DNA of 44,968 nucleotides. Source: an uncultured Candidatus Saccharibacteria bacterium (GTDB lineage Bacteria > Patescibacteriota > Minisyncoccia > Phycocordibacterales > DATDWN01). Of the stretch, positions 5,885 through 41,178 are shown piece by piece; position 1 is the first letter of the stretch; every line of letters begins with the position of its first letter. The notes beneath the pieces were generated by a model that worked only from the letters and a program-made list of their open reading frames with translations, searched no databases and was not told the DNA's origin. A program made the translations under genes and the position numbers. The DNA lies in contig CAYMJQ010000005.1 in NCBI GenBank assembly GCA_964391455.1, positions 1 through 44,968 on the forward strand, given 5' to 3'.

Positions 5885-8359
5885 ATGATAAAGGTCTTTA
5901 AAATAAAAAAATATAAATTTGTTGCTATAAAAATAATTATTATATTTATAATATCACCTATTTTGTCTATACTGCCTTTGAATGTTAAAGAAGTTCAGGC
6001 TCAAATTCCAGGTGAAAAGGTTATTTTTTTGACCACAACGGGCACCAACACATGGACGGTTCCAGATGATTGGTCAGACAATAATAAAATAGAAGTTATT
6101 GGAGGTGGGGGTGGGGGTAGAGCTGGATCAACTGCTGGTGCGAGAGGTGGTGGCGGTGGCTCTTATTCGGTTGCAACCGTAACAGGACTTTCTCCTGGTG
6201 GTTCTGTAACATATCGGGTTGGTGCTGGAGGTGCTGGAGGCACTACAGCCGGAACATCTGGAACTACTGGGGGAGATACATTTTTTAATAGAACAGCTGG
6301 TTCAGCAGATACTTGTGGAGATACTGTTTCAGTGTGTGCTAAAGGTGGTACCGGAGGGACATCTGCATCTGCTGGTGGCGTTGGTGGTGCTGTTGCTAGT
6401 AACAAACCAGCAAACGTTGGTTTTGCTGGTGGAAATGCAGGTTCTGGTAGTGGTACTGGTGATACTGGCGGTGGAGGTGGTGCTGCAGCAGGGCCTCATG
6501 GGGTAGGTAATTTGGCCGGTAATGGTCAAGGTGCTTCTCCGGGTGCTGGTGGTGGAGGTGGAGGAAGTGCAGGAAGCTCTGCTACAGCAGGAAGTGCCGG
6601 TTCAACTAATGGTGGTAACGGGGGTAATTCTTGGAGGGGTTCAGGAACTAATGGTACTGGTGCAAATGCAACAACTAATACTCCAGCTTCTTCTGGTACA
6701 AGTGGTGGTGGAGGTGGTGGCGGGGCTGCAACAACAACTACAACATCGCTTAGGGCAGGAGCAAATGGTAGTGATGGTTATGGAGTTTGGGTATCAACTC
6801 ATGCTGAAGATGGGGTAACTCCATCTGTGTCATCTATTGGCCCTGGTGGTGGTGGAGGTGGTGGCGGGGCTGCATCTGGAAACGGAACAGACTCTTCAGG
6901 TGGTGATGGTGGACTATATGGTGCTGGAGGTGGTGGGGCGTATCAAAATGCGGGTGATGGGGCTCAGGGAGTTATAGTAATTACTTATATACCAAGTAGT
7001 ATCGACAATATAAAGACAATTTTTTTGACCACAACAGGCACCAACACATGGACGGTTCCAGATGATTGGTCAGACGATAATGAAATCCATGTATTTGGTG
7101 CTGGTGGTGGAGGTAGAGCAGGATCGTCTTCAGGTGCAAAGGGTGGTGGAGGTGGAGCTTATGCTTCAAGTACTGTAACAGGACTTTCTCCTGGTGGTTC
7201 TGTAACATATCGGGTTGGTGCTGGAGGTGCTGGAGGCACTACAGCCGGAACATCTGGAACTACTGGGGGAGATACATTTTTTAATAGAACAGCTGGTTCA
7301 GCAGATACTTGTGGAGATACTGTTTCAGTGTGTGCTAAAGGTGGTACCGGAGGGACATCTGCAACGGCCGGTGGTGTTGGTGGTCAGATTGTAAATAACA
7401 AACCTGCATACGTAGGATATAATGGTGGTGCTGGAGGAAATGGTAATAACACTGGTGATACTGGTGGTGGAGGCGGTGGAGCAGCTGGGCCTTTTGGTTC
7501 TGGAAGAATAGGTGGTAATGGACAAGGTGCAGCTCCTGGTGCTGGGGGAGGCGGTGGAGGTGCGGGTGGGTTGGGTTCAGCCGGTTCAACTATTGGTGGA
7601 AATGGTGGAGTAAATTTTTCAGGATCTGGTTCTGGTACAGGTGCAAATCCAACAACCAATACTCCAGCTTCAATTGGTACTACAGGCGGTGGAGGTGGTG
7701 GCGGGGCTGCAACAACAACTACAACATCACTTAGGGCAGGGGCAAATGGTTCTAACAGTGAAATTTTTACATCAACTCATGCTGAAGACGGAGTAACTCC
7801 ATCCGTAGCATCCATTGGTCCTGGTGGAGGTGGTGGAGGTGGTGGGGCAACAACTGGTAATGGGACAGGTTCTTCAGGTGGTGATGGTGGTTATGGTGGT
7901 GGAGGTGGTGGAGCGTATCAAAATGCGGGTGATGGTGGAAATGGTTTTATCGTAATTAGATATGTTCCAGAATCTTCAGGTTCGCCCCCCACAACAAACA
8001 CTAACTTCGCTGTACCAGGAGCTACAACAGCAACATTACATGGAACAAAAACAGGTGGAGGAGATGCGACACAACATGGTTTTGCTTGGGGAACAAACTC
8101 AGGATTATCCGGGGGAGATACAGCAACAACAACACTAGGTTCGTTAAATAGTAACAGTGCTTTCATAAGTAATTTATCTGGTCTTAGTACTGGAACAACA
8201 TATTATTTTAGAGCTTATGCTACAAATGCAGATGGAACTGGATATGGAACCATCAAGAGTTTTGTTACAGGGAACACAAATGTAAGTAGAAGTTTGCGGA
8301 TTTTTGAAGGCGCTCGTTTGAATCTATTAAACGGTAAAATTATAATACACCAAAGATAA
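5885..8359 (+). CDS. Secreted glycine-rich repeat protein of 824 aa: two ~330-aa tandem units plus a C-terminal FN3-like module
   Basis: Signal peptide ending in VQAQ. Each unit starts with FLTTTGTNTWTVPDDWSD followed by GGGGG runs, as in glycine-rich domains of phage-fibre-like proteins. C-terminus shared with 2449..4914. Confidence 0.7.
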   Translation: MIKVFKIKKYKFVAIKIIIIFIISPILSILPLNVKEVQAQIPGEKVIFLTTTGTNTWTVPDDWSDNNKIEVIGGGGGGRAGSTAGARGGGGGSYSVATVTGLSPGGSVTYRVGAGGAGGTTAGTSGTTGGDTFFNRTAGSADTCGDTVSVCAKGGTGGTSASAGGVGGAVASNKPANVGFAGGNAGSGSGTGDTGGGGGAAAGPHGVGNLAGNGQGASPGAGGGGGGSAGSSATAGSAGSTNGGNGGNSWRGSGTNGTGANATTNTPASSGTSGGGGGGGAATTTTTSLRAGANGSDGYGVWVSTHAEDGVTPSVSSIGPGGGGGGGGAASGNGTDSSGGDGGLYGAGGGGAYQNAGDGAQGVIVITYIPSSIDNIKTIFLTTTGTNTWTVPDDWSDDNEIHVFGAGGGGRAGSSSGAKGGGGGAYASSTVTGLSPGGSVTYRVGAGGAGGTTAGTSGTTGGDTFFNRTAGSADTCGDTVSVCAKGGTGGTSATAGGVGGQIVNNKPAYVGYNGGAGGNGNNTGDTGGGGGGAAGPFGSGRIGGNGQGAAPGAGGGGGGAGGLGSAGSTIGGNGGVNFSGSGSGTGANPTTNTPASIGTTGGGGGGGAATTTTTSLRAGANGSNSEIFTSTHAEDGVTPSVASIGPGGGGGGGGATTGNGTGSSGGDGGYGGGGGGAYQNAGDGGNGFIVIRYVPESSGSPPTTNTNFAVPGATTATLHGTKTGGGDATQHGFAWGTNSGLSGGDTATTTLGSLNSNSAFISNLSGLSTGTTYYFRAYATNADGTGYGTIKSFVTGNTNVSRSLRIFEGARLNLLNGKIIIHQR
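6179..6367 (+). repeat. 189-bp exact core of the tandem duplication inside the Gly-rich gene, copy 1
   Basis: Identical to 7175..7363 (offset 996 bp). Flanks are related but diverged. Confidence 0.85.
7175..7363 (+). repeat. 189-bp exact core of the tandem duplication inside the Gly-rich gene, copy 2
   Basis: Identical to 6179..6367. Confidence 0.85.
7985..8290 (+). repeat. 306-bp module, copy 2; by eye identical to 4540..4845
   Basis: Same comparison as copy 1. Identity stops abruptly after GTAGA (codons ..VSR). Confidence 0.9.
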
Positions 8360-27659: not shown

Positions 27660-27688
27660 TTGACAAATTACTTATTTGGGTGTATAAT
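27660..27688 (+). promoter_or_regulatory. Near-consensus sigma70 promoter
   Basis: TTGACA (27660-27665), 17-nt spacer, TATAAT (27683-27688). SD AGGAGG at 27696-27701. Confidence 0.6.
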
Positions 27689-27707
27689 CATAGGTAGGAG
27701 GTGCCAA

Positions 27708-28475
27708 ATGGCCCTGATTCACAGAGTAATGGTCGTGGCCCTCGCGGTTTTTGCGGGGGCGTGTGCCACCAAGTCGGTGGCAACGGTGCAGGCGACTGCA
27801 CCCTCCCAGTCGGGTGTTGCGACAGAAGATGTCGCAACTCTTAAGGCCGAGCTTGAGATTCTCGCCGAAAGGCGAGAGGAACTCAAGGCAGAGGAGCTCG
27901 CACTGCGTAAGCAGAAGCCGGTTCCTTCGGAGGAACTGGTTCGCGTCCGAGCCGAGCAAATTCGGCTCAATGGACGCGAGTCTGTCATTTTGGACCGGTT
28001 GTACCGGCAAAGTGACTCAGCGGAACGCCAAGCCCGGGGTGAACTCCAGAAGGAGACGCGTCGGGTGGAAAGGATTGAGCGGGAGAATGCCAAGGCTGTT
28101 TCGGAGGCGCAACTTACGGGTTGCGCACCTGATACTGTCAAGGTATTCCCCCTTGACCAGCGGAGAGATCCATTCGCGATCTTTCCGTCCACTCTCCGGG
28201 TCAGGATCCTAAATCAGGGGCTGAACCCGATCAACGTAGATACCTCCTTCAGGGGTTATGGCACTCTGGTGTCAGACCTCTGTTCAGGGGGAGCTGTTAC
28301 TCTGACTTTCAAGCTCAACGCTTGGGAGCCAGGTCAGCAGATTCCCCTTACGTTTTGGACTAAGCTTCAGAACGGGAGGGTGAGTTCTCAAAGGAGAACT
28401 TTCTGGCTCCAGAGGTCGAGGCAGAGACAGTTGATCTGGAACGATACAGTCCAGATCAACCTCGACAACCGGTAG
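27708..28475 (+). CDS. G+C-rich hypothetical lipoprotein (255 aa) with a coiled-coil segment
   Basis: The ATG lies 6 nt after AGGAGG. Signal peptide VVALAVFAGAC is lipobox-like. Charged heptad-like stretch LKAELEILAERREELKAEELALRK. 37 of 60 G+C in line 27781-27840. Confidence 0.6.
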   Translation: MALIHRVMVVALAVFAGACATKSVATVQATAPSQSGVATEDVATLKAELEILAERREELKAEELALRKQKPVPSEELVRVRAEQIRLNGRESVILDRLYRQSDSAERQARGELQKETRRVERIERENAKAVSEAQLTGCAPDTVKVFPLDQRRDPFAIFPSTLRVRILNQGLNPINVDTSFRGYGTLVSDLCSGGAVTLTFKLNAWEPGQQIPLTFWTKLQNGRVSSQRRTFWLQRSRQRQLIWNDTVQINLDNR

Positions 28476-32273: not shown

Positions 32274-32510
32274 ATGAAGGGAAAATCTCTTACTTCGGAA
32301 CAGGTGCAAACGGTCATTCGTCTTTTGGGGGAGACAGATATTTCTCTTAAAGATATTGCAAAAAGGATGAGATGTGGTTCTCATGTAATCACGCGTATAA
32401 ATAGAGAGAACGGTCTCATAAGAGATTTCAGGGTTTCCTTTGATCAAAAGAAAGAGAAACCCTTAAGGAAGAGATTTATCGTAAAAGATGTAAAAGGAGG
32501 TTTTCTTTGA
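32274..32510 (+). CDS. Small helix-turn-helix protein (78 aa)
   Basis: The ATG lies 5 nt after GGGAGG. LTSEQVQTVIRLLGETDISLKDIAKRMRCGSHVITRI looks like a resolvase/transposase-type HTH. Basic C-terminus. Confidence 0.5.
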   Translation: MKGKSLTSEQVQTVIRLLGETDISLKDIAKRMRCGSHVITRINRENGLIRDFRVSFDQKKEKPLRKRFIVKDVKGGFL

Positions 32511-32715: not shown

Positions 32716-32800
32716 ACTAGAAGTTAAGTTGTTCTAAGAAAGTGCTCAATTTGAGCTTTCTCTCGGGACAATTTTGTCCAAGTTCTTTAAGGAGACAGTT

Positions 32801-33106
32801 ATGAACGTACAGGATATGCAGCGTCTCAACGAAGACCTGCGACGCGCAGTTCAGATCGACATTCGTGGACGCAAGAGAGAAAACGGAACCCAGTGGTTCC
32901 GACAGGCTCCCCGTTCACGAGGGTATCACACCTTCGTCTGGCCAGGCCCTCCCGCACTTCTCAAGGTCGGGAAGGACGACGTGAACTCGGAAGACTGGAG
33001 CAAGCCGCTCGAAGAAGTCGGCGAGATCCACATCTGGACGAACGCCGATGGACCCAGCATCTACTGGGAAGTCACTGGCGACGGTCCACTCCAGCGTACG
33101 AACTAG
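32801..33106 (+). CDS. G+C-rich hypothetical protein (101 aa), no signal peptide
   Basis: The ATG lies 6 nt after AAGGAG. Hand counts of 32/60 and 35/60 G+C in two lines, versus 14/60 in a line of the neighbouring holA-like gene. No family recognised. Confidence 0.55.
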   Translation: MNVQDMQRLNEDLRRAVQIDIRGRKRENGTQWFRQAPRSRGYHTFVWPGPPALLKVGKDDVNSEDWSKPLEEVGEIHIWTNADGPSIYWEVTGDGPLQRTN

Positions 33107-33170: not shown

Positions 33171-33390
33171 TATAATAATCTCCCGTTAGGTCACCTAGAT
33201 TATAAATTTTATACCACAGAGTCATGAATTCGATTCCTCTTGGGTTAAACTCAAAATCTATGTGTCCTGGGATAATTTCCTTGTCGTCACAAGGAAATTT
33301 CCTTCGGTCGACGACTTAGTCATGTCCCAAAAGTAATTTTCTGCTGAAAATTCTTTTGGGCCGACCTCAGCGCCGTCGCGCTTGCGGTTC

Positions 33391-33437
33391 GCACAAGTAC
33401 GAAAAAATCTGCATCCCAGCAGATTTGTTTCGTCTTG
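33391..33437 (-). terminator. Extended A-tract/hairpin/T-tract hairpin directly after the tRNA-Lys 3' end
   Basis: GCACAAGTACGAAAAAATCTGC-ATCCCA-GCAGATTTGTTTCGTCTTGTGC (plus-strand reading). Confidence 0.6.
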
Positions 33438-33510
33438 TGCGCCCGGCAGGAATCGAACCTGCGACCCTCTCCTTAAAAGGGAGCTGCTCTACCGACTGAG
33501 CTACGGGCGC
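33438..33510 (-). tRNA. tRNA-Lys (anticodon UUU), no encoded CCA
   Basis: Reverse complement GCGCCCG-TA-GCTC-AGTCGGTA-GAGC-A-GCTCC-CTTTTAA-GGAGA-GGGTC-GCAGG-TTCGATT-CCTGC-CGGGCGC-A folds as a cloverleaf. Confidence 0.9.
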
Positions 33511-33554
33511 ATGAGCCCAAAAACATAATTTGAATTATGTTTTTGTGGACTCAT

Positions 33555-33648
33555 GCGAGCCGCAGTCATGTTTTGTTAGCAAACAAAACAGACGAGGCGG
33601 GGTCGCGGAAATTTTGTTTTGGCGAAAACAAAATTATCCGTGACCATG
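33555..33648 (+). repeat. Two-hairpin G+C-enriched intergenic element, copy A
   Basis: GCGAGCCGCAG, hairpin TGTTTTGTT/AACAAAACA, GACGAGGCGGGG, long hairpin GGTCGCGGAAATTTTGTTTT-GGCG-AAAACAAAATTATCCGTGACC. Confidence 0.6.
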
Positions 33649-35522: not shown

Positions 35523-36422
35523 TTATTTTTGGCATTTTTTGCAAAATATTGTAGTTCTACTTTGTATTTTTGTTTTTTGTAAAACGTTTAAACATCTAGG
35601 ACATTTCTCACCAGATTTACCGTATACTTTGTGTTCTCTGGCGTAATTTCCAACTGATTCATCTAAAAGTCTATAGGTTGCCACAGAGGATCCACCAACT
35701 TTGATTGCTTTTTTAATTATTCTGACAATCGATTTGTGTAGGAGTTTTATTTCATTTATTTTTAGAGAGAAGGCTGGTCTTTCTGGATTTATTTTTGCTT
35801 CAAAAAGACTTTCGTCTGCGTAAATGTTTCCAATTCCAGTTACTACTTCTTGGTTCATCAAAACTGCTTTAATTTTACCTTTTTTATTTTTAAGTGAGCT
35901 TTCTAGATATTTTGGAGTAAATTTTTTATCTAAAGGTTCTAATCCTAGTAATTCAAAATGTTTTGCTTCTTCAAATATTTTTGTGTTTGGGTGGTACAAA
36001 AGATAGCCAAACATTCTTGTGTCGTTGTAGTAAAGTGTTCCTTTGTTTAATTCAAAAATTATGTGAGTGTGTTTGTTCGGTATTTGTTTTTCGGATATTT
36101 CTATCGGGTGTCCACCAATTATTTTTTTATCATTACCTAATTCTTTATATACAAATTGTCCAGACATTTTAAGATGAACTAATAAAATTTTACCGCTTTT
36201 GAATTTGAAAATTAAATTTTTTGCTCTTCTTTCTATTTCTAAAAAAATTTCACTCTTTAAACCCTCTTCAAACTCTTTCACTTTTTTGTTTGAAGACACT
36301 CTTAATGTTCCTTTTCCAGATACAAGTTTCGGCTTGTAAACTTTAACTTTTAATATCTTTTGTTCAATGATCTTTTTTTCTAATCCTATTCGAAGATTTT
36401 CTACTTCAGGTAGTTCAGGCAT
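35523..36422 (-). CDS. mutM: Formamidopyrimidine-DNA glycosylase (Fpg/MutM)
   Basis: MPELPEVE N-terminus, H2TH region GIGNIYADE, and C-terminal zinc finger CPRC...CKKC. Confidence 0.9.
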   Translation of the reverse strand: MPELPEVENLRIGLEKKIIEQKILKVKVYKPKLVSGKGTLRVSSNKKVKEFEEGLKSEIFLEIERRAKNLIFKFKSGKILLVHLKMSGQFVYKELGNDKKIIGGHPIEISEKQIPNKHTHIIFELNKGTLYYNDTRMFGYLLYHPNTKIFEEAKHFELLGLEPLDKKFTPKYLESSLKNKKGKIKAVLMNQEVVTGIGNIYADESLFEAKINPERPAFSLKINEIKLLHKSIVRIIKKAIKVGGSSVATYRLLDESVGNYAREHKVYGKSGEKCPRCLNVLQKTKIQSRTTIFCKKCQK

Positions 36423-36423
36423 A

Positions 36424-36813
36424 TTATTTATTTTTTTTAGTATCCAAATAGCTTTGTAGTATTATCGCCGCTGCAGAAGCATCGGTCATTTTGTTTTTGC
36501 CTTGGAGTTTTTCTGCTTGTACAGAGCTTAGGAATTCAGGATGAAATATGATATCCAGTCCAGTTTCTTTTTTTAATTTTTCTGTAAAAAATCTAATCTC
36601 TTTCATTATTGGGTTATCATCACCATTGTAATTTTTAGAGTCTCCAAAAATTAGCATTCCAACTTCTTTTTCTTGGCAGATTTTTCTAATTTCATCTAAA
36701 AGGGTGGGGGAGTTTTTTAGAACAGTAAGTGGGTATGCAAAATTTCCATTTTCGTCAGAAAACGCTACACCTACATTTTTTGTTCCAAAATCTATACCTA
36801 GAATTCTTTTCAT
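36424..36813 (-). CDS. ruvX: YqgF/RuvX putative pre-16S rRNA nuclease / resolvase-like protein
   Basis: ILGIDFGTKNVGVAFSD start, 129 aa. Confidence 0.85.
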   Translation of the reverse strand: MKRILGIDFGTKNVGVAFSDENGNFAYPLTVLKNSPTLLDEIRKICQEKEVGMLIFGDSKNYNGDDNPIMKEIRFFTEKLKKETGLDIIFHPEFLSSVQAEKLQGKNKMTDASAAAIILQSYLDTKKNK

Positions 36814-36880: not shown

Positions 36881-36967
36881 GGATGGGTGGCTGAGTGGTC
36901 TAAAGCAACAGTCTTGAAAACTGTCGTCTGGGCAACTGGACCGTGAGTTCGAATCTCACCCCATCCG
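36881..36967 (+). tRNA. tRNA-Ser (anticodon UGA) with a long variable arm, no encoded CCA
   Basis: GGATGGG acceptor pairs with CCCATCC. Anticodon arm ACAGT-CTTGAAA-ACTGT. T arm GTGAG-TTCGAAT-CTCAC. Confidence 0.9.
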
Positions 36968-37000
36968 CAAACGAAAACCGCGAAAGCGGTTTTTTGTTTG
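36968..37000. terminator. A-tract/hairpin/T-tract terminator after tRNA-Ser
   Basis: CAAACGAAAACCGC-GAAA-GCGGTTTTTTGTTTG. Confidence 0.75.
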
Positions 37001-37042
37001 GGTTGGGAGCAAAGTGTGGGACACTTTGCGTGTGGATTCGAA

Positions 37043-37134
37043 AGACGGAGCGGGGAACCCGTCGAGTACGACGGGTCGCGAGTCAGGGTTGTGCGGCTAA
37101 AATTGTGACGACAATTTTAGAACGCCTGACCGAA
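37043..37134 (+). repeat. Two-hairpin G+C-enriched intergenic element, copy D
   Basis: AGACGGAGC, hairpin CCCGTCG-AGTA-CGACGGG, GCGAGTCAGGG, hairpin CTAAAATTGT-GACG-ACAATTTTAG, then CTGACCGAA. Confidence 0.55.
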
Positions 37135-37149
37135 TCTCACCTCATCCGC
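37131..37149 (+). repeat. Degenerate copy of the tRNA-Ser 3' end (18/19 nt)
   Basis: CGAATCTCACCTCATCCGC versus CGAATCTCACCCCATCCGC at 36950-36968. Confidence 0.8.
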
Positions 37150-37359
37150 TAGTTGGAATTTTGCAAGCGAGAAGACATTGCTTTGCAGTGGCTGTGCCCC
37201 GCTCGGCTAGGATTAGAGGGGTTTTTAGCGAAAAAGAAAAGGATTTATCAATAAAAAATTTTTTTCATAAGGATTTTAGGGAAGAAACTCGTTGAGTTTT
37301 TTGTTTTTAATTTGATTTTTGATTCACAAAAGCATATTCTTGAGTACAGGAGGACCATC

Positions 37360-37791
37360 ATGAGTTTCCGCTTATGGACACTAGGTTTCGTATTGGTCTT
37401 TAGCCTGATCGCATGTTCTAGTGGTGACATTTCGTTGCCACAAGTTCAGATGGCAACCACACAGGAGCCACAAGACGTCTCTCTCGTGCAGTTGATCGCC
37501 AACCCGAATAAGTATCACAAAAGTCTGGTACGGGTCATCGGTTTCTGCCGTTTGGAATTTGAGGGTAATGCCCTCTACATCCATCGAGACGACTTCGAGT
37601 ATAGTATCAGCAAGAACGGTGTCTGGATCCAAGTTGGTTGGCCTATACCAGAGGATTTCCGAGAAATGAGTGACGAGTATGTGATCGTCGAAGCGATTTT
37701 TGACGCCGAACAGAAGGGACACTTCGGGATGTTCTCGGGATCACTTGAGGAAGTCAGGCGACTTGATCGCTGGGGATTACGAGCAAAGTGA
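37360..37791 (+). CDS. G+C-rich hypothetical lipoprotein (143 aa)
   Basis: The ATG lies 6 nt after AGGAGG (37348-37353). Signal peptide with lipobox LIAC. 33/60 G+C in line 37441-37500. Confidence 0.6.
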   Translation: MSFRLWTLGFVLVFSLIACSSGDISLPQVQMATTQEPQDVSLVQLIANPNKYHKSLVRVIGFCRLEFEGNALYIHRDDFEYSISKNGVWIQVGWPIPEDFREMSDEYVIVEAIFDAEQKGHFGMFSGSLEEVRRLDRWGLRAK

Positions 37792-37797
37792 GTGTTT

Positions 37798-37849
37798 GTC
37801 GACGAGTCGGGATCGAGAACACTTAGTAACTCGTGACCGAATCTGTCAC
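37798..37849 (+). repeat. Partial copy C of the two-hairpin element, ending in a T-arm-like hairpin
   Basis: GTCGACGAGTCGGG..CTCGTGACC. GTGAC-CGAATCT-GTCAC (37833-37849) mimics the tRNA-Ser T arm GTGAG-TTCGAAT-CTCAC. Confidence 0.5.
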
Positions 37850-37926
37850 AGATAATTTTTTGCTAAAAATTTCTGCAACCCCACCTCGGCTTGTCAGCCT
37901 CCGGTCTTGCGATTGGGTTCAGTCCC

Positions 37927-37943
37927 AATCTCACCCCATCCGC
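37927..37943 (+). repeat. Exact 17-nt copy of the tRNA-Ser 3' end (att-like direct repeat)
   Basis: AATCTCACCCCATCCGC is identical to 36952-36968. Confidence 0.85.
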
Positions 37944-37952
37944 CAAAATTGG

Positions 37953-37986
37953 AAATCTCCAATACTGTCAAGTATTGGAGATTTTT
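37953..37986. terminator. Hairpin terminator directly after the distal tRNA-end repeat
   Basis: AAATCTCCAATACT-GTCA-AGTATTGGAGATTT followed by TT. Confidence 0.7.
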
Positions 37987-38044
37987 ATACTTCACAATAA
38001 GTCTCTTTGACACTTTATTTTTTGTGTTAGAATTTAGTGTATAA

Positions 38045-39949
38045 ATGAGTAAAGTTTTAGAAAAATCCAAATTCTTAATTGCGGCAACATTGGTCGTTGT
38101 TTTGTTCTTGTATGTAGTATATCCTGCAATATTGCTTGCGACGCCAAACATTGATTCTTACTCTTCTGCTGGGAGTATAGGAGGATCTGGGAATACTGTA
38201 AGTTTAAGTTTGCCATCAGGTCTTACCTCAGGTGATTTACTCGTGGCTTGTATATCTGGCAATGTTGGTGCTGGGGAAACAGCAGAAGTCTCTGCTTCTG
38301 GCTGGACACACGTGGCTACTGTTGGTGGTAGTTCATCTAACAAAATTGGTATGATGTATCGTTTTTGGCAACCAGCAGATAGTGACCCTGTGGTTTTTAC
38401 ATTATCTAGTGGTTCAGCGTCGGCACGTCGGGGTATGATGTGGCGAATTTCTGGTGCTAATGCTTCACCTTCTGCTGCAACTCCAAGTACTCGAGATCAG
38501 ACATCTGGAAATTCAGATAGAATTTATAACAGCATTACAACTTCTGAAGACAATTCGCTTCTTTTGGGTTGTTTGGCTTGGAACACAAATGATTCAACTT
38601 ATACACCTGATGCATCTCTTTCTAATAGTGTAACCGAAAATAGGTTTGCTGGTGATTATAGAGTACAAGCTTCTGCTGGAGCTAGTGGTTCTTTTACAGG
38701 TAGTGGTACGAGCGCAACATATAAATCAATTCTTTGGGCAGTAGCACCTGGTGCTGGACCAAATACTGCACCTTCTGTTGTCGCCAATAGTCCTGCTGAC
38801 AGTGCTACCGGTATTTCAACAACACCAACTTTAAACTTTACTGGCTCTGATGATGACGATGATGATTTAACCTACGAAATACAAATAACTGATAACCCTG
38901 ATGCTTATACTGGAGGTGAAATTTTAGTTGACAGTTATTCTGGTATTGGAGGTACTCCGTTTGTAATTCATCCAAATCCACTATCATCAGTAACATCGCC
39001 AACTACAGGAAATATCCAGACAGACGACAGGGCTTGTCAGAGTTTTACCGGAAATGGTGGACGTATAACCAGAGCTTCTTTTTATTTTGGGGTTAATGAA
39101 ACTAGCCCATCTTCTACTGATGGGACTTTATATGCTAGGATTTACAATATAGACGGTACACATGGGACCAATGCCAGACCTGCTGGAGCAACTGCAGCTC
39201 CTTCTGGTTCTGCTACAAATGAGGGAGACAATACTCCTACAACAGGATGGTTAGCTGTATCTGATGGCTTACCTTTTGATGAAAATGGAGAAACTCAATT
39301 CCATGATGTGACTTTTAGTGGTAATCAGATCATAAGAACCACTAACGGTGAGAATTACATGTTGTGTGCTGATTGGGTACCAAACGATACTGATATTAAT
39401 AATGCACCAGCGTTTAGAGCAACTTCAGGTAATCCAAGTGGCCATGACGGAAATGCTTGGATTGATGGTGATTCTGCTAACTACGGTGATGGAGCTGCTG
39501 ATTTTATTGATGATTCAGATGTTTGGTTTAGGGTATATGAGACATATATTTTATTGTCAAAAGCAAGTAACGCTGATGCCGGCTTCTTAAATACTGTTAG
39601 TGGCGGTGATACAGATCCTTTCAATGCTGGAGAGCAAATCTCATATACTGTACAATCTGGAGATACCTTAGCTTCTAATGCTATTTATTATTGGCAGGTG
39701 AGAGCTAAAGACCCATCAGGTTCAGACAATTTTTCTACCTATAGCACTACAAGAAGTTTTACTACATCTAGTGGATCATCAAATACTAAAGGGAGTAGTG
39801 GAGCTTCAACCGAAGTTAACTCAGGTGCAGGTACTCCTACTGGAGGTGGTACAAGCAGATCTGGTTCCGGAGGGGGTGATGGTTCCGGAGGCGGAGGTCC
39901 TACTGGAGGAGGAAGCTCATTTGGTAAAAGTGGAGGTCCTAGTCCTTAA
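38045..39949 (+). CDS. Secreted 634-aa protein with an FN3-like segment, a poly-Asp run and a Gly/Ser-rich tail
   Basis: N-terminal TM/signal sequence. PSVVANSPADSATGISTTPTLNFTGSDDDDDDLTYEIQI. C-terminal GGGTSRSGSGGGDGSGGGGPTGGG. Confidence 0.65.
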   Translation: MSKVLEKSKFLIAATLVVVLFLYVVYPAILLATPNIDSYSSAGSIGGSGNTVSLSLPSGLTSGDLLVACISGNVGAGETAEVSASGWTHVATVGGSSSNKIGMMYRFWQPADSDPVVFTLSSGSASARRGMMWRISGANASPSAATPSTRDQTSGNSDRIYNSITTSEDNSLLLGCLAWNTNDSTYTPDASLSNSVTENRFAGDYRVQASAGASGSFTGSGTSATYKSILWAVAPGAGPNTAPSVVANSPADSATGISTTPTLNFTGSDDDDDDLTYEIQITDNPDAYTGGEILVDSYSGIGGTPFVIHPNPLSSVTSPTTGNIQTDDRACQSFTGNGGRITRASFYFGVNETSPSSTDGTLYARIYNIDGTHGTNARPAGATAAPSGSATNEGDNTPTTGWLAVSDGLPFDENGETQFHDVTFSGNQIIRTTNGENYMLCADWVPNDTDINNAPAFRATSGNPSGHDGNAWIDGDSANYGDGAADFIDDSDVWFRVYETYILLSKASNADAGFLNTVSGGDTDPFNAGEQISYTVQSGDTLASNAIYYWQVRAKDPSGSDNFSTYSTTRSFTTSSGSSNTKGSSGASTEVNSGAGTPTGGGTSRSGSGGGDGSGGGGPTGGGSSFGKSGGPSP

Positions 39950-40005
39950 TAATTTGTTAATAAATAAGGAGTTAAAATATTTTTATAATAGTATACTTAA
40001 TATAT

Positions 40006-40938: not shown

Positions 40939-41010
40939 GCTCTTGTAGTTTAATGGATAGAATGCTGGCCTGCGAAGCTGGCGATCCCAGTTCGATTCTG
41001 GGCGAGAGCA
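40939..41010 (+). tRNA. tRNA-Arg (anticodon GCG), no encoded CCA
   Basis: GCTCTTG-TA-GTTT-AATGGATA-GAAT-G-CTGGC-CTGCGAA-GCTGG-CGAT-CCCAG-TTCGATT-CTGGG-CGAGAGC-A. The D and anticodon stems contain G-U pairs. Confidence 0.8.
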
Positions 41011-41058
41011 CAAGTGTACTAAAAAACCCCAACTGCTTGGGATTTTTTAGTACACTTG
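41011..41058. terminator. Extended terminator hairpin after tRNA-Arg
   Basis: CAAGTGTACTAAAAAACCCCA-ACTGC-TTGGGATTTTTTAGTACACTTG. Confidence 0.7.
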
Positions 41059-41060
41059 TG

Positions 41061-41150
41061 AGACGGAGCTATGTTTTTGTACCAACAAAAACAAGCGAGT
41101 CGGGGTCGCAAAAATTTATGAGCGACGGCGAATAAATTATTTGTGACCAA
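41061..41150 (+). repeat. Two-hairpin G+C-enriched intergenic element, copy B
   Basis: AGACGGAGC, hairpin TGTTTTTGT-ACCA-ACAAAAACA, GCGAGTCGGGG, hairpin GGTCGCAAAAATTTAT..ATAAATTATTTGTGACC. Confidence 0.6.
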
Positions 41151-41154
41151 GTTA

Positions 41155-41178
41155 AACCCCAACTGCTTGGGATTTTTT
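41155..41178. repeat. Second copy of the 24-bp terminator core AACCCCAACTGCTTGGGATTTTTT, which also serves as the rpsT terminator
   Basis: Identical to 41025-41048. The two copies flank element copy B. Confidence 0.85.

Follow-up and report, generated by a model that had tools for sequence, protein, structure and literature searches.

We observed that the sequences repeating the 3' end of a tRNA-Ser(UGA) gene, in the 44,968-nucleotide stretch of DNA analysed here (the window, about 45 kb of the source genome), are the terminal arms of a family of GC-rich, two-hairpin repeats, and are not the scars of a single island that carried the lipoprotein gene lying among them. By the Rfam and literature searches, this family, which we call R1, is a previously undescribed small hairpin-forming repeat family beside tRNA genes in Paceibacteria, a group of ultra-small bacteria. 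Behind tRNA-Ser the repeats form a structured scaffold of elements that open with an inverted copy of the tRNA end (X'), contain hairpins (often the R1 core) and often close with a direct copy (X) running from the T-loop to the discriminator base plus one C. The content of the slot just behind the second direct copy, X2, varies: here a foreign lipoprotein gene with its own leader occupies it, and close relatives have nothing or different small genes there. We put this descriptive account as a whole (the scaffold, the X'-core-X elements, the identity of the three tail copies and the variable slot) at about 0.85, and the further step, that the arms are recombination sites for a recombinase encoded in trans, at about 0.4. 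An earlier note on this DNA had recorded the direct copies and missed the inverted copy that opens each element; it had proposed either a stack of eroded islands or a very small cassette mobilised in trans.

The tRNA-Ser(UGA) gene (36881-36968, + strand) was identified with ARAGORN and with Rfam model RF00005 (62.2 bits), and its last 17 nt, 36952-36968, constitute copy X1. A pattern search of the window with this 17-mer, AATCTCACCCCATCCGC, bore out the exact recurrence reported at 37927-37943 (X3), and gave a site with one mismatch at 37133-37149 (X2), within the 18/19 copy that had been placed correctly at 37131-37149. No further site was seen in the window at up to 3 mismatches; the chance expectation was 0.07 matches, and 0 of 100 shuffles gave three sites. 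A fourth, partial copy, AACTCGTGACCGAATCT, lies at 37828-37844 (direct repeat D5). The copies are genuinely derived from the tRNA 3' end, with their left edge in the T-loop and their right edge at the tRNA end, and this is the geometry expected for tRNA-directed site-specific recombination.

Both terminator hairpins that had been described, one after the tRNA and one after the distal repeat, are also present. The first (36969-36999, + strand; 36973-36994 in the terminator scan) is the intrinsic terminator of tRNA-Ser. Its stem is lengthened by pairing of the acceptor 3' strand with the start of the following element, E1 (inverted repeat I1, 36960-36981 and 36986-37007, as seen in the DNA fold). 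The second (37953-37986, + strand), directly 3' of X3, is a perfect 14-bp inverted repeat (I3, 37953-37966 and 37971-37984) followed by a T run.

For comparison we used 80 loci from relatives, of about 12 kb each; L numbers denote these and other loci from outside the window. The Fpg protein of the window is 59-81% identical to those of 80 Paceibacterota/Nomurabacteria-type metagenome-assembled genomes, the closest four at this locus, L005 to L008, standing at 77-81%. A covariance model of R1 was built from an 11-sequence alignment with a two-hairpin consensus. This model matched element E1 (37000-37149, + strand) with 77 bits and E=1e-13, and the core of element G (37844-37911, within 37833-37943, - strand) with 38.4 bits and E=5e-6, E-values that are rough on account of a shortened calibration.

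E1, of which L008 has an orthologous copy, consists of a degenerate inverted tRNA end X' (37000-37046, split by a hairpin at 37009-37029), the R1 core (37039-37131) and X2, and folds with its ends pairing at -64 kcal/mol (z=-4.6). The 5' arm of G (fold z=-3.9) is the exact reverse complement of the tRNA end and reads on the + strand as X3. A partial forward R1 unit, the 3' half only (37797-37844, + strand; core motif 37802-37816), includes D5 and ends in GTGACC-GAATCT; it is also found in L007, which has in addition a G-like unit at 91% identity and no lipoprotein gene. This forward half-element abuts G tail-to-tail, and the junction produces the palindrome GTGAC-CGAATCT-GTCAC at 37833-37849, located there by the earlier note as a T-arm mimic. 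Since X3 belongs to an element on the minus strand, the first of the three tail copies is the tRNA itself, X2 is the arm that closes E1, and X3 the arm that opens the inverted G. The two hairpin-rich repeat copies that had been counted do exist, but they are inverted relative to each other (37039-37131 on the + strand, 37844-37911 on the - strand), and the window holds three more copies of the family.

In total, R1 occurs in five copies in the window, adjoining tRNA-Ser, tRNA-Arg and tRNA-Lys, and in 21 more copies in 862 kb of the relatives' loci. The tRNA-Lys gene is framed symmetrically, with one copy on each side directed away from it: 44 nt upstream at 33554-33645 (+ strand; 100.8 bits; fold z=-9.0) and 44 nt downstream at 33270-33393 (- strand; hits at 33325-33393 with 30.7 bits and at 33270-33302 with 29.5 bits). 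The remaining copy (41057-41148, + strand; 99 bits) lies 46 nt downstream of tRNA-Arg(GCG) (40939-41011). Altogether 22 of the 26 copies were found within 300 nt of a tRNA (3.8% expected), usually with a gap of 40-46 nt to the tRNA edge (one terminator-like hairpin), and the 5' end of R1 faces the tRNA in 20 of these 22.

The structure of R1 is maintained across copies. In the seed alignment (11 sequences), 22 of the 31 pairs covary. The 21 copies of the relatives showed 95.3% paired cells and double changes at 30 of 31 pairs, a level reached by 0 of 500 shuffles. This alignment was obtained by fitting to the model, and the fairer reference is therefore the slid controls, which gave 34-50% paired, far below 95.3%. 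At paired positions G·T exceeded A·C (20:1 and 32:10), indicating that the fold is selected on one strand. The copy upstream of tRNA-Lys has orthologs in L006, L007, L015 and L028, and its hairpins are kept across five species by compensatory changes. Rather than debris of eroded islands, the hairpin-rich repeats are a conserved, covarying, structured family beside three different tRNAs.

Searches for a known counterpart gave no match. With Rfam 15, only tRNAs were matched in the window at the gathering score, and at permissive thresholds around three R1 copies nothing credible was seen at E 1-5 or below (tRNA and noise). No description of the family was found in the literature on repeats of Patescibacteria or the candidate phyla radiation, on integrons of Patescibacteria, or on tRNA-flanking repeats. 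We also found no viral source for the R1 or tail elements in IMG/VR. The core motif had seven matches there, none of which was confirmed by the R1 model, and we regard them as chance matches for this reason. The 21-nt tRNA-Ser tail had six, five of them full tRNA-Ser genes and the sixth an unrelated GC-rich provirus border (L177).

R1 was also seen in head-to-tail runs, with three copies after tRNA-Arg in L056 (3012-3301) and two after tRNA-Lys in L016 (5793-5988). Short-type copies, of the kind in element G, stand at L033 12055-12122 (- strand) and L019 33-99 (+ strand) with no tRNA in the DNA examined, the former directly upstream of a uvrA-like start codon. A hammerhead or other small-ribozyme three-way junction was considered and rejected, as Rfam gives no support to it. 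The gene between the two tRNA-Lys copies (33437-33510, - strand) was called 'tRNA-Stop (tta)' by ARAGORN. A tRNA-Stop(UUA) suppressor was rejected; the orthologs in L007 and L015, which ARAGORN calls tRNA-Lys(UUU), have the same anticodon loop, CTTTTAA, and the gene is tRNA-Lys(UUU), a single base outside the loop having shifted the register of the ARAGORN call.

The arms that copy the neighbouring tRNA end recur in the relatives. In L005 to L008, a GC-rich element 130-180 nt long comes after the tRNA-Ser terminator; it opens with the reverse complement of the tRNA 3' end and closes with a full or partial direct tail copy. The inverted copy of L007 is exact over 22 nt and, together with the terminator and the tRNA tail, gives a 36-bp hairpin (z=-12). 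L008 has a variant tRNA-Ser acceptor, CACTCCATCC, and the same variant is present in its inverted arm and in its distal copy. The X'...X architecture was also observed at tRNA-Arg, in L008 (a direct copy, exact over 18 nt), L021 (a partial direct copy, and an inverted one that a hairpin interrupts) and L023 (direct copies, two of them identical, 23 nt). Direct copies mostly begin in the T-loop (about C56-A58; that of L005 begins at the T-stem), and all of them end at the discriminator plus one C. The T-loop start corresponds to a known sublocation of tRNA-targeting integrases (bioRxiv 10.1101/2020.11.02.365908). X' has two pairing options, either back over the terminator to the tRNA tail or forward to the distal X, closing the element. 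Other core types are flanked in the same manner, one after tRNA-Ser in L006 and L007 and another after tRNA-Arg in L008 and L021, and the architecture is thus more general than the R1 core. A role of X' as a retroelement-type primer-binding site was rejected, as the complement of CCA does not precede X'.

The variable slot could be delimited by comparison with the closest relatives. Homology to L008 spans E1 and ends at 37147, and homology to L007 covers 37831-37944 (at 91%) and ends where X3 ends. The window is therefore L008-like on the left and L007-like on the right, with the lipoprotein gene and its leader (37150-37796) in between, directly after X2 and between a forward and an inverted R1. 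Behind the first element nothing is found in L007 or in L006 (which also lacks a 634-amino-acid open reading frame (ORF) of the window), L008 has a YdeI/OmdA-like gene and a MerR-type gene, and L005 has a 152-aa deoxyribosyltransferase-like gene between two further tail copies. In L023 a gene for a 270-aa membrane protein, absent from the window, stands between the two identical tRNA-Arg tail copies of 23 nt, and a small X'-hairpin-X element is located at the 3' end of this cassette. Single-gene units bracketed by tail copies were thus seen three times independently (in the window, L005 and L023).

These relatives also bear on where the repeats came from. The earlier note had held that its reading would fall if relatives lacking the gene still carried all the repeat copies in the same arrangement. 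Repeats are indeed carried without the gene, in part of that arrangement: copy 2 and an E1-type element in L008, copy 3 with its inverted element (91% identity) in L007, and in both L006 and L007 an inverted tRNA-end copy that is exact or nearly so. It was not the lipoprotein cassette that introduced the repeats. The 634-aa ORF (38045-39949, + strand; 42% G+C) has a Gly/Ser-rich C-terminus and only a sub-threshold Ig-like match, and is absent from 80 of the 80 relatives. In L006 and L008 the tRNA-Ser region is joined to the homolog of ORF146 without it.

The lipoprotein gene (37360-37791, + strand) encodes 143 aa with a signal peptide, the lipobox LIAC and a predicted OB-fold, and is preceded by AGGAGG at 37348-37353. 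A lipobox of the consensus [LVI][ASTVI][GAS]C closes the N-terminal signal peptide of lipoproteins. The N-terminus, MSFRLWTLGFVLVFSLIAC, fits this, and the Cys is conserved in many, not all, of the close homologs. Reading frame, ribosome-binding motif and lipobox are as the earlier note had them, but the G+C content is 48.6% and not about 55%. A Pfam search with the protein found no domain. The AlphaFold (AF2) model, a confident one (pLDDT 84), has an OB-fold, and its structural matches are weak (e.g. the DUF3299 entry 4hsp, E=4e-3).

The databases hold 58 homologs (best 79%), and at least 238 metagenomic relatives were found, mostly on soil contigs of 52-65% G+C. The closest homologs (72-79%) are from other Parcubacteria, and the gene is richer in G+C than its host (56% vs 41% in L001). 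None of the 80 relatives' loci encodes it. From its composition, the distribution of its homologs and its absence from the relatives, we conclude that the lipoprotein gene is horizontally acquired, in line with the claim that the enclosed gene is foreign.

The leader of the cassette (37150-37359, + strand, delimited by blastn and sequence) has a conserved promoter and Shine-Dalgarno region at 37253-37359. Its part 37196-37275 is a remnant, in inverted orientation, of a palindromic element of about 340 nt that lies upstream of the L001 and L002 homologs. This MITE-like element was seen upstream of Parcubacteria lipoprotein homologs at L001 1-315, L002 2019-2361 and L165 ~110-300. Its terminal inverted repeats are perfect over 24-27 nt, and it holds an internal GC-rich repeat (GGCGGTGTATTC...), of which there are several per contig in both orientations. 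A general link of the lipoprotein family to tRNAs or recombinases was rejected, with a tRNA in the flank of 3 of 80 metagenomic loci and a Xer-like gene in 3 of 80. The latter are G+C-rich loci (L092, L127 and L164) in which the lipoprotein homolog has a gene for a Xer-like tyrosine recombinase no more than about 2 kb away. Perhaps the family is mobile in its main hosts as well.

As to mechanism, we propose that a recombinase whose gene lies elsewhere in the genome would use the arms as its sites. By analogy with integron attC and the attP of CTX phage, the folded X'-core-X on one strand could mimic the T-loop/acceptor duplex of the tRNA target, and single-gene cassettes might then be inserted, deleted or inverted at the X copies. 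Between recombination at the arms and hairpin extension with illegitimate insertion, we slightly favour the former. The idea of a very small cassette mobilised in trans gains some support from the two further tail-bracketed single-gene cassettes (L005 and L023). The most specific form of the proposal, an integron-like, trans-mobilised cassette system of Paceibacteria with the tRNA 3' end as primary attachment site and folded X'-core-X elements as cassette-associated sites, we consider unlikely. If it held, genomes that are otherwise highly streamlined would take up single genes, such as this lipoprotein gene, behind tRNA-Ser, tRNA-Arg and possibly other tRNAs, and shuffle and invert them there.

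Several observations count against the arms as recombination sites. Among the major ORFs of the window that were scanned (at least 90 aa), none showed an integrase-type Pfam domain, and tblastn with XerD and lambda Int gave no match in the window or in the 80 relatives' loci (887 kb together); the earlier remark that no recombinase lies nearby was correct. An empty site or excised junction of the unit 37150-37943 was observed in none of the relatives. X1 is joined to 37944 in none of them, and L007, without the gene, keeps X3. L006 lacks window 36996-39975 and has another element in its place, and the right edge of this indel (39975) has no X copy. Behind the lipoprotein gene the element stands in inverted orientation, which is not how an integron-type cassette ends. 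Moreover, the arms of the R1 copies upstream of tRNA-Lys are leader sequence (GGACTCAT/ATGAGTCC) and not the tRNA 3' end, and at the tRNA-Arg copy of the window it is the terminator core, not the tRNA tail, that is duplicated on either side (25 nt, exact; 41024-41048 and 41154-41178). What is repeated is therefore not in every case the tRNA tail. Finally, the orthologous conservation of R1 across species fits a resident functional element equally well.

A second explanation does without dedicated recombination; in it, R1 and its relatives are resident cis-elements or small RNAs flanking tRNAs, for example terminator or insulator modules or tRNA-like processing signals. The match of the arms to the tail would then be due to the extension and correction of hairpin stems through template switching within the molecule (quasi-palindrome correction), or to selection for pairing, and the lipoprotein gene would have entered a permissive spacer by illegitimate or homology-facilitated recombination. 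This agrees with the orthologous copies at the same positions in at least five species with their compensatory changes, with the constant 40-46 nt spacing on both sides of tRNA-Lys and the non-tRNA arms there, and with the strand-specific G·T pairs and the failure to find a recombinase in the window or the relatives' loci. The type IV pilus/competence-type genes of the window (PilB, PilMNO) are compatible with DNA uptake. What it does not explain alone is that tail copies bracket different single genes in three genomes, including the identical 23-nt pair of L023, and that homology breaks exactly at the ends of X2 and X3. Most R1 copies lie after terminators or are antisense to the neighbouring transcript, which makes RNA expression doubtful. 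We consider this explanation possible, though on balance less probable than not. Improbable, in our view, is a stack of tRNA-integrated islands of the classical type, worn down to about 0.2 and 0.8 kb and left att-flanked and integrase-less by tandem accretion (like a CIME, or cis-mobilizable element). Its direct repeats of the tRNA 3' part would begin in the T-loop as they do here, a tandem arrangement with the newest unit nearest the tRNA is a known outcome of accretion (PMC5704250), and tRNA fragments left by integrations are widespread (PMC9897764). Yet no residual integrase, excisionase or transfer gene fragments were found, R1 was not found in IMG/VR viral contigs, and each unit opens with an inverted tail copy, which integration does not produce. 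The uniform small size and the covarying architecture beside three tRNAs in many species are also not what random erosion would be expected to leave.

Two more trivial explanations are very improbable. In a chimeric assembly, the G+C-rich gene would have been joined to the contig through short repeats, and composition does jump at 36970-37990 with repeats at the borders. The exact repeats, however, are just 17 nt, probably below the usual assembly k-mers, the AT-rich leader part 37196-37359 has a homologous counterpart in the leader of other Parcubacteria assemblies, and E1 and G are each confirmed by an independent assembly (L008 and L007). Decayed tandem duplicates of the tRNA-Ser gene would likewise leave tRNA-derived sequence repeated on the same strand. 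In that case, it is hard to see why the repeated part always runs from the T-loop to the 3' end only, with no remnant of the D-arm, anticodon arm or variable arm and no pseudo-tRNA by ARAGORN or Rfam; the same partial pattern is seen at tRNA-Arg, and a full second tRNA-Ser was found in 0 of 8 tRNA-Ser(UGA) loci examined.

We also compared the arrangement with known systems. It resembles tRNA-integrated islands and CIMEs in that DNA is bracketed by direct repeats that copy the 3' part of the tRNA from the T-loop onwards (X1, X2 and X3), several units are stacked behind one tRNA, a foreign gene is present and the units differ among close relatives. It departs from them in the size of the units (0.18-1.1 kb, with one gene or none), in the absence of integrase or island-gene remnants from the window as searched, in the inverted tail copy and conserved hairpins of every unit, and in the presence of the same core beside three different tRNAs and also upstream of a tRNA. 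A CIME keeps attL and attR and no longer carries the genes for its integration and transfer (PMC5704250). The X-bounded units, for which no recombinase was found, match this in form only. No intact integrase-bearing element was seen at the tRNA-Ser site in the 80 relatives.

The likeness to integron attC sites and to the folded single-strand attP of CTX phage lies in the small single-gene cassettes and in the conservation of structure rather than sequence. As in attC, an imperfect palindrome has complementary outer arms, one of which repeats the primary site, the fold is strand-specific (from the G·T bias), and the L023 element stands at a cassette 3' end. Unlike in integrons, the window showed neither an IntI gene nor an attI-Pc platform, and the 'primary site' here would be the end of a tRNA gene. 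The arms are 13-22 nt against 7 nt in attC, and the motifs R'' (RYYYAAC) and R' (GTTRRRY) are absent from the element ends, which consist of copies of the tRNA tail; the GTT motif that comes nearest, GTTGGAA (37153-37159, immediately behind X2), does not have the final Y of R'. In addition, the cassette-distal element of the window is inverted, and elements also occur cassette-free at conserved positions.

REP, BIME and REPIN sequences and other small structured intergenic repeats (MITE-like, SPRITE, RPE) have been reviewed (PMC3184786). R1 shares with REP/BIME/REPIN sequences that it is multi-copy, GC-rich, hairpin-forming and extragenic, lies near terminators, occurs singly, in tandem and in inverted pairs (such as E1 and G), and is a possible recombination hot spot. 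In contrast to these palindromes of 20-40 nt, R1 units have two hairpins and 90-150 nt, lie almost exclusively beside tRNAs at the fixed distance of 40-46 nt, and have arms that are locus-specific copies of the tRNA end and not family-wide terminal repeats. No RAYT (HUH Y1) or other transposase gene was seen among the window ORFs scanned. Unlike in MITEs, the arms vary by locus (tRNA-Ser tail, tRNA-Arg tail, tRNA-Lys leader), and no short target-site duplication flanks the units. The locus is most like a hybrid of tRNA-directed integration of the CIME kind, integron cassettes and repeats of the REP/BIME type, and lacks at least one defining feature of each.

The interest of the locus lies in a repeat family that mimics the tRNA end and in a recurrent gene slot, more than in the lipoprotein 'cassette'. 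Bacteria of the candidate phyla radiation have tiny genomes, and how they acquire genes is little understood. Should the arms be recombination sites, they would form a minimal gene-capture system that has no local integrase and unites traits of integron cassettes with those of tRNA-targeted islands; should they not, R1 remains a new class of structured element flanking tRNAs. That it is conserved and folds strand-specifically calls for a function, for example in termination, insulation, processing or protein binding. On the practical side, automated tools will mis-score the tRNA tail copies, taking them for tRNA fragments or for the boundaries of islands.

The window as a whole is a segment of a cellular genome with a low G+C content (35.5%). 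It carries the housekeeping genes ruvX (36424-36813, - strand), fpg (35523-36422, - strand), polA, lepA, murJ, ruvABC and pilBMNO. Two ORFs without Pfam match or counterpart in the relatives, at 27660-28475 and 32774-33106 (both + strand), are G+C-rich (55-56%). No repeats were found flanking the first, and the second adjoins the tRNA-Lys R1 pair. A 78-aa ORF (32274-32510, + strand) between holA (DNA polymerase III delta) and the G+C-rich ORF110 has no Pfam match, and by eye has the look of a helix-turn-helix protein. Another compositional outlier is the region 6000-8000, with 50% G+C and a strong skew of G over C, which lies inside an 824-aa ORF (5885-8359) for a glycine-rich surface protein.

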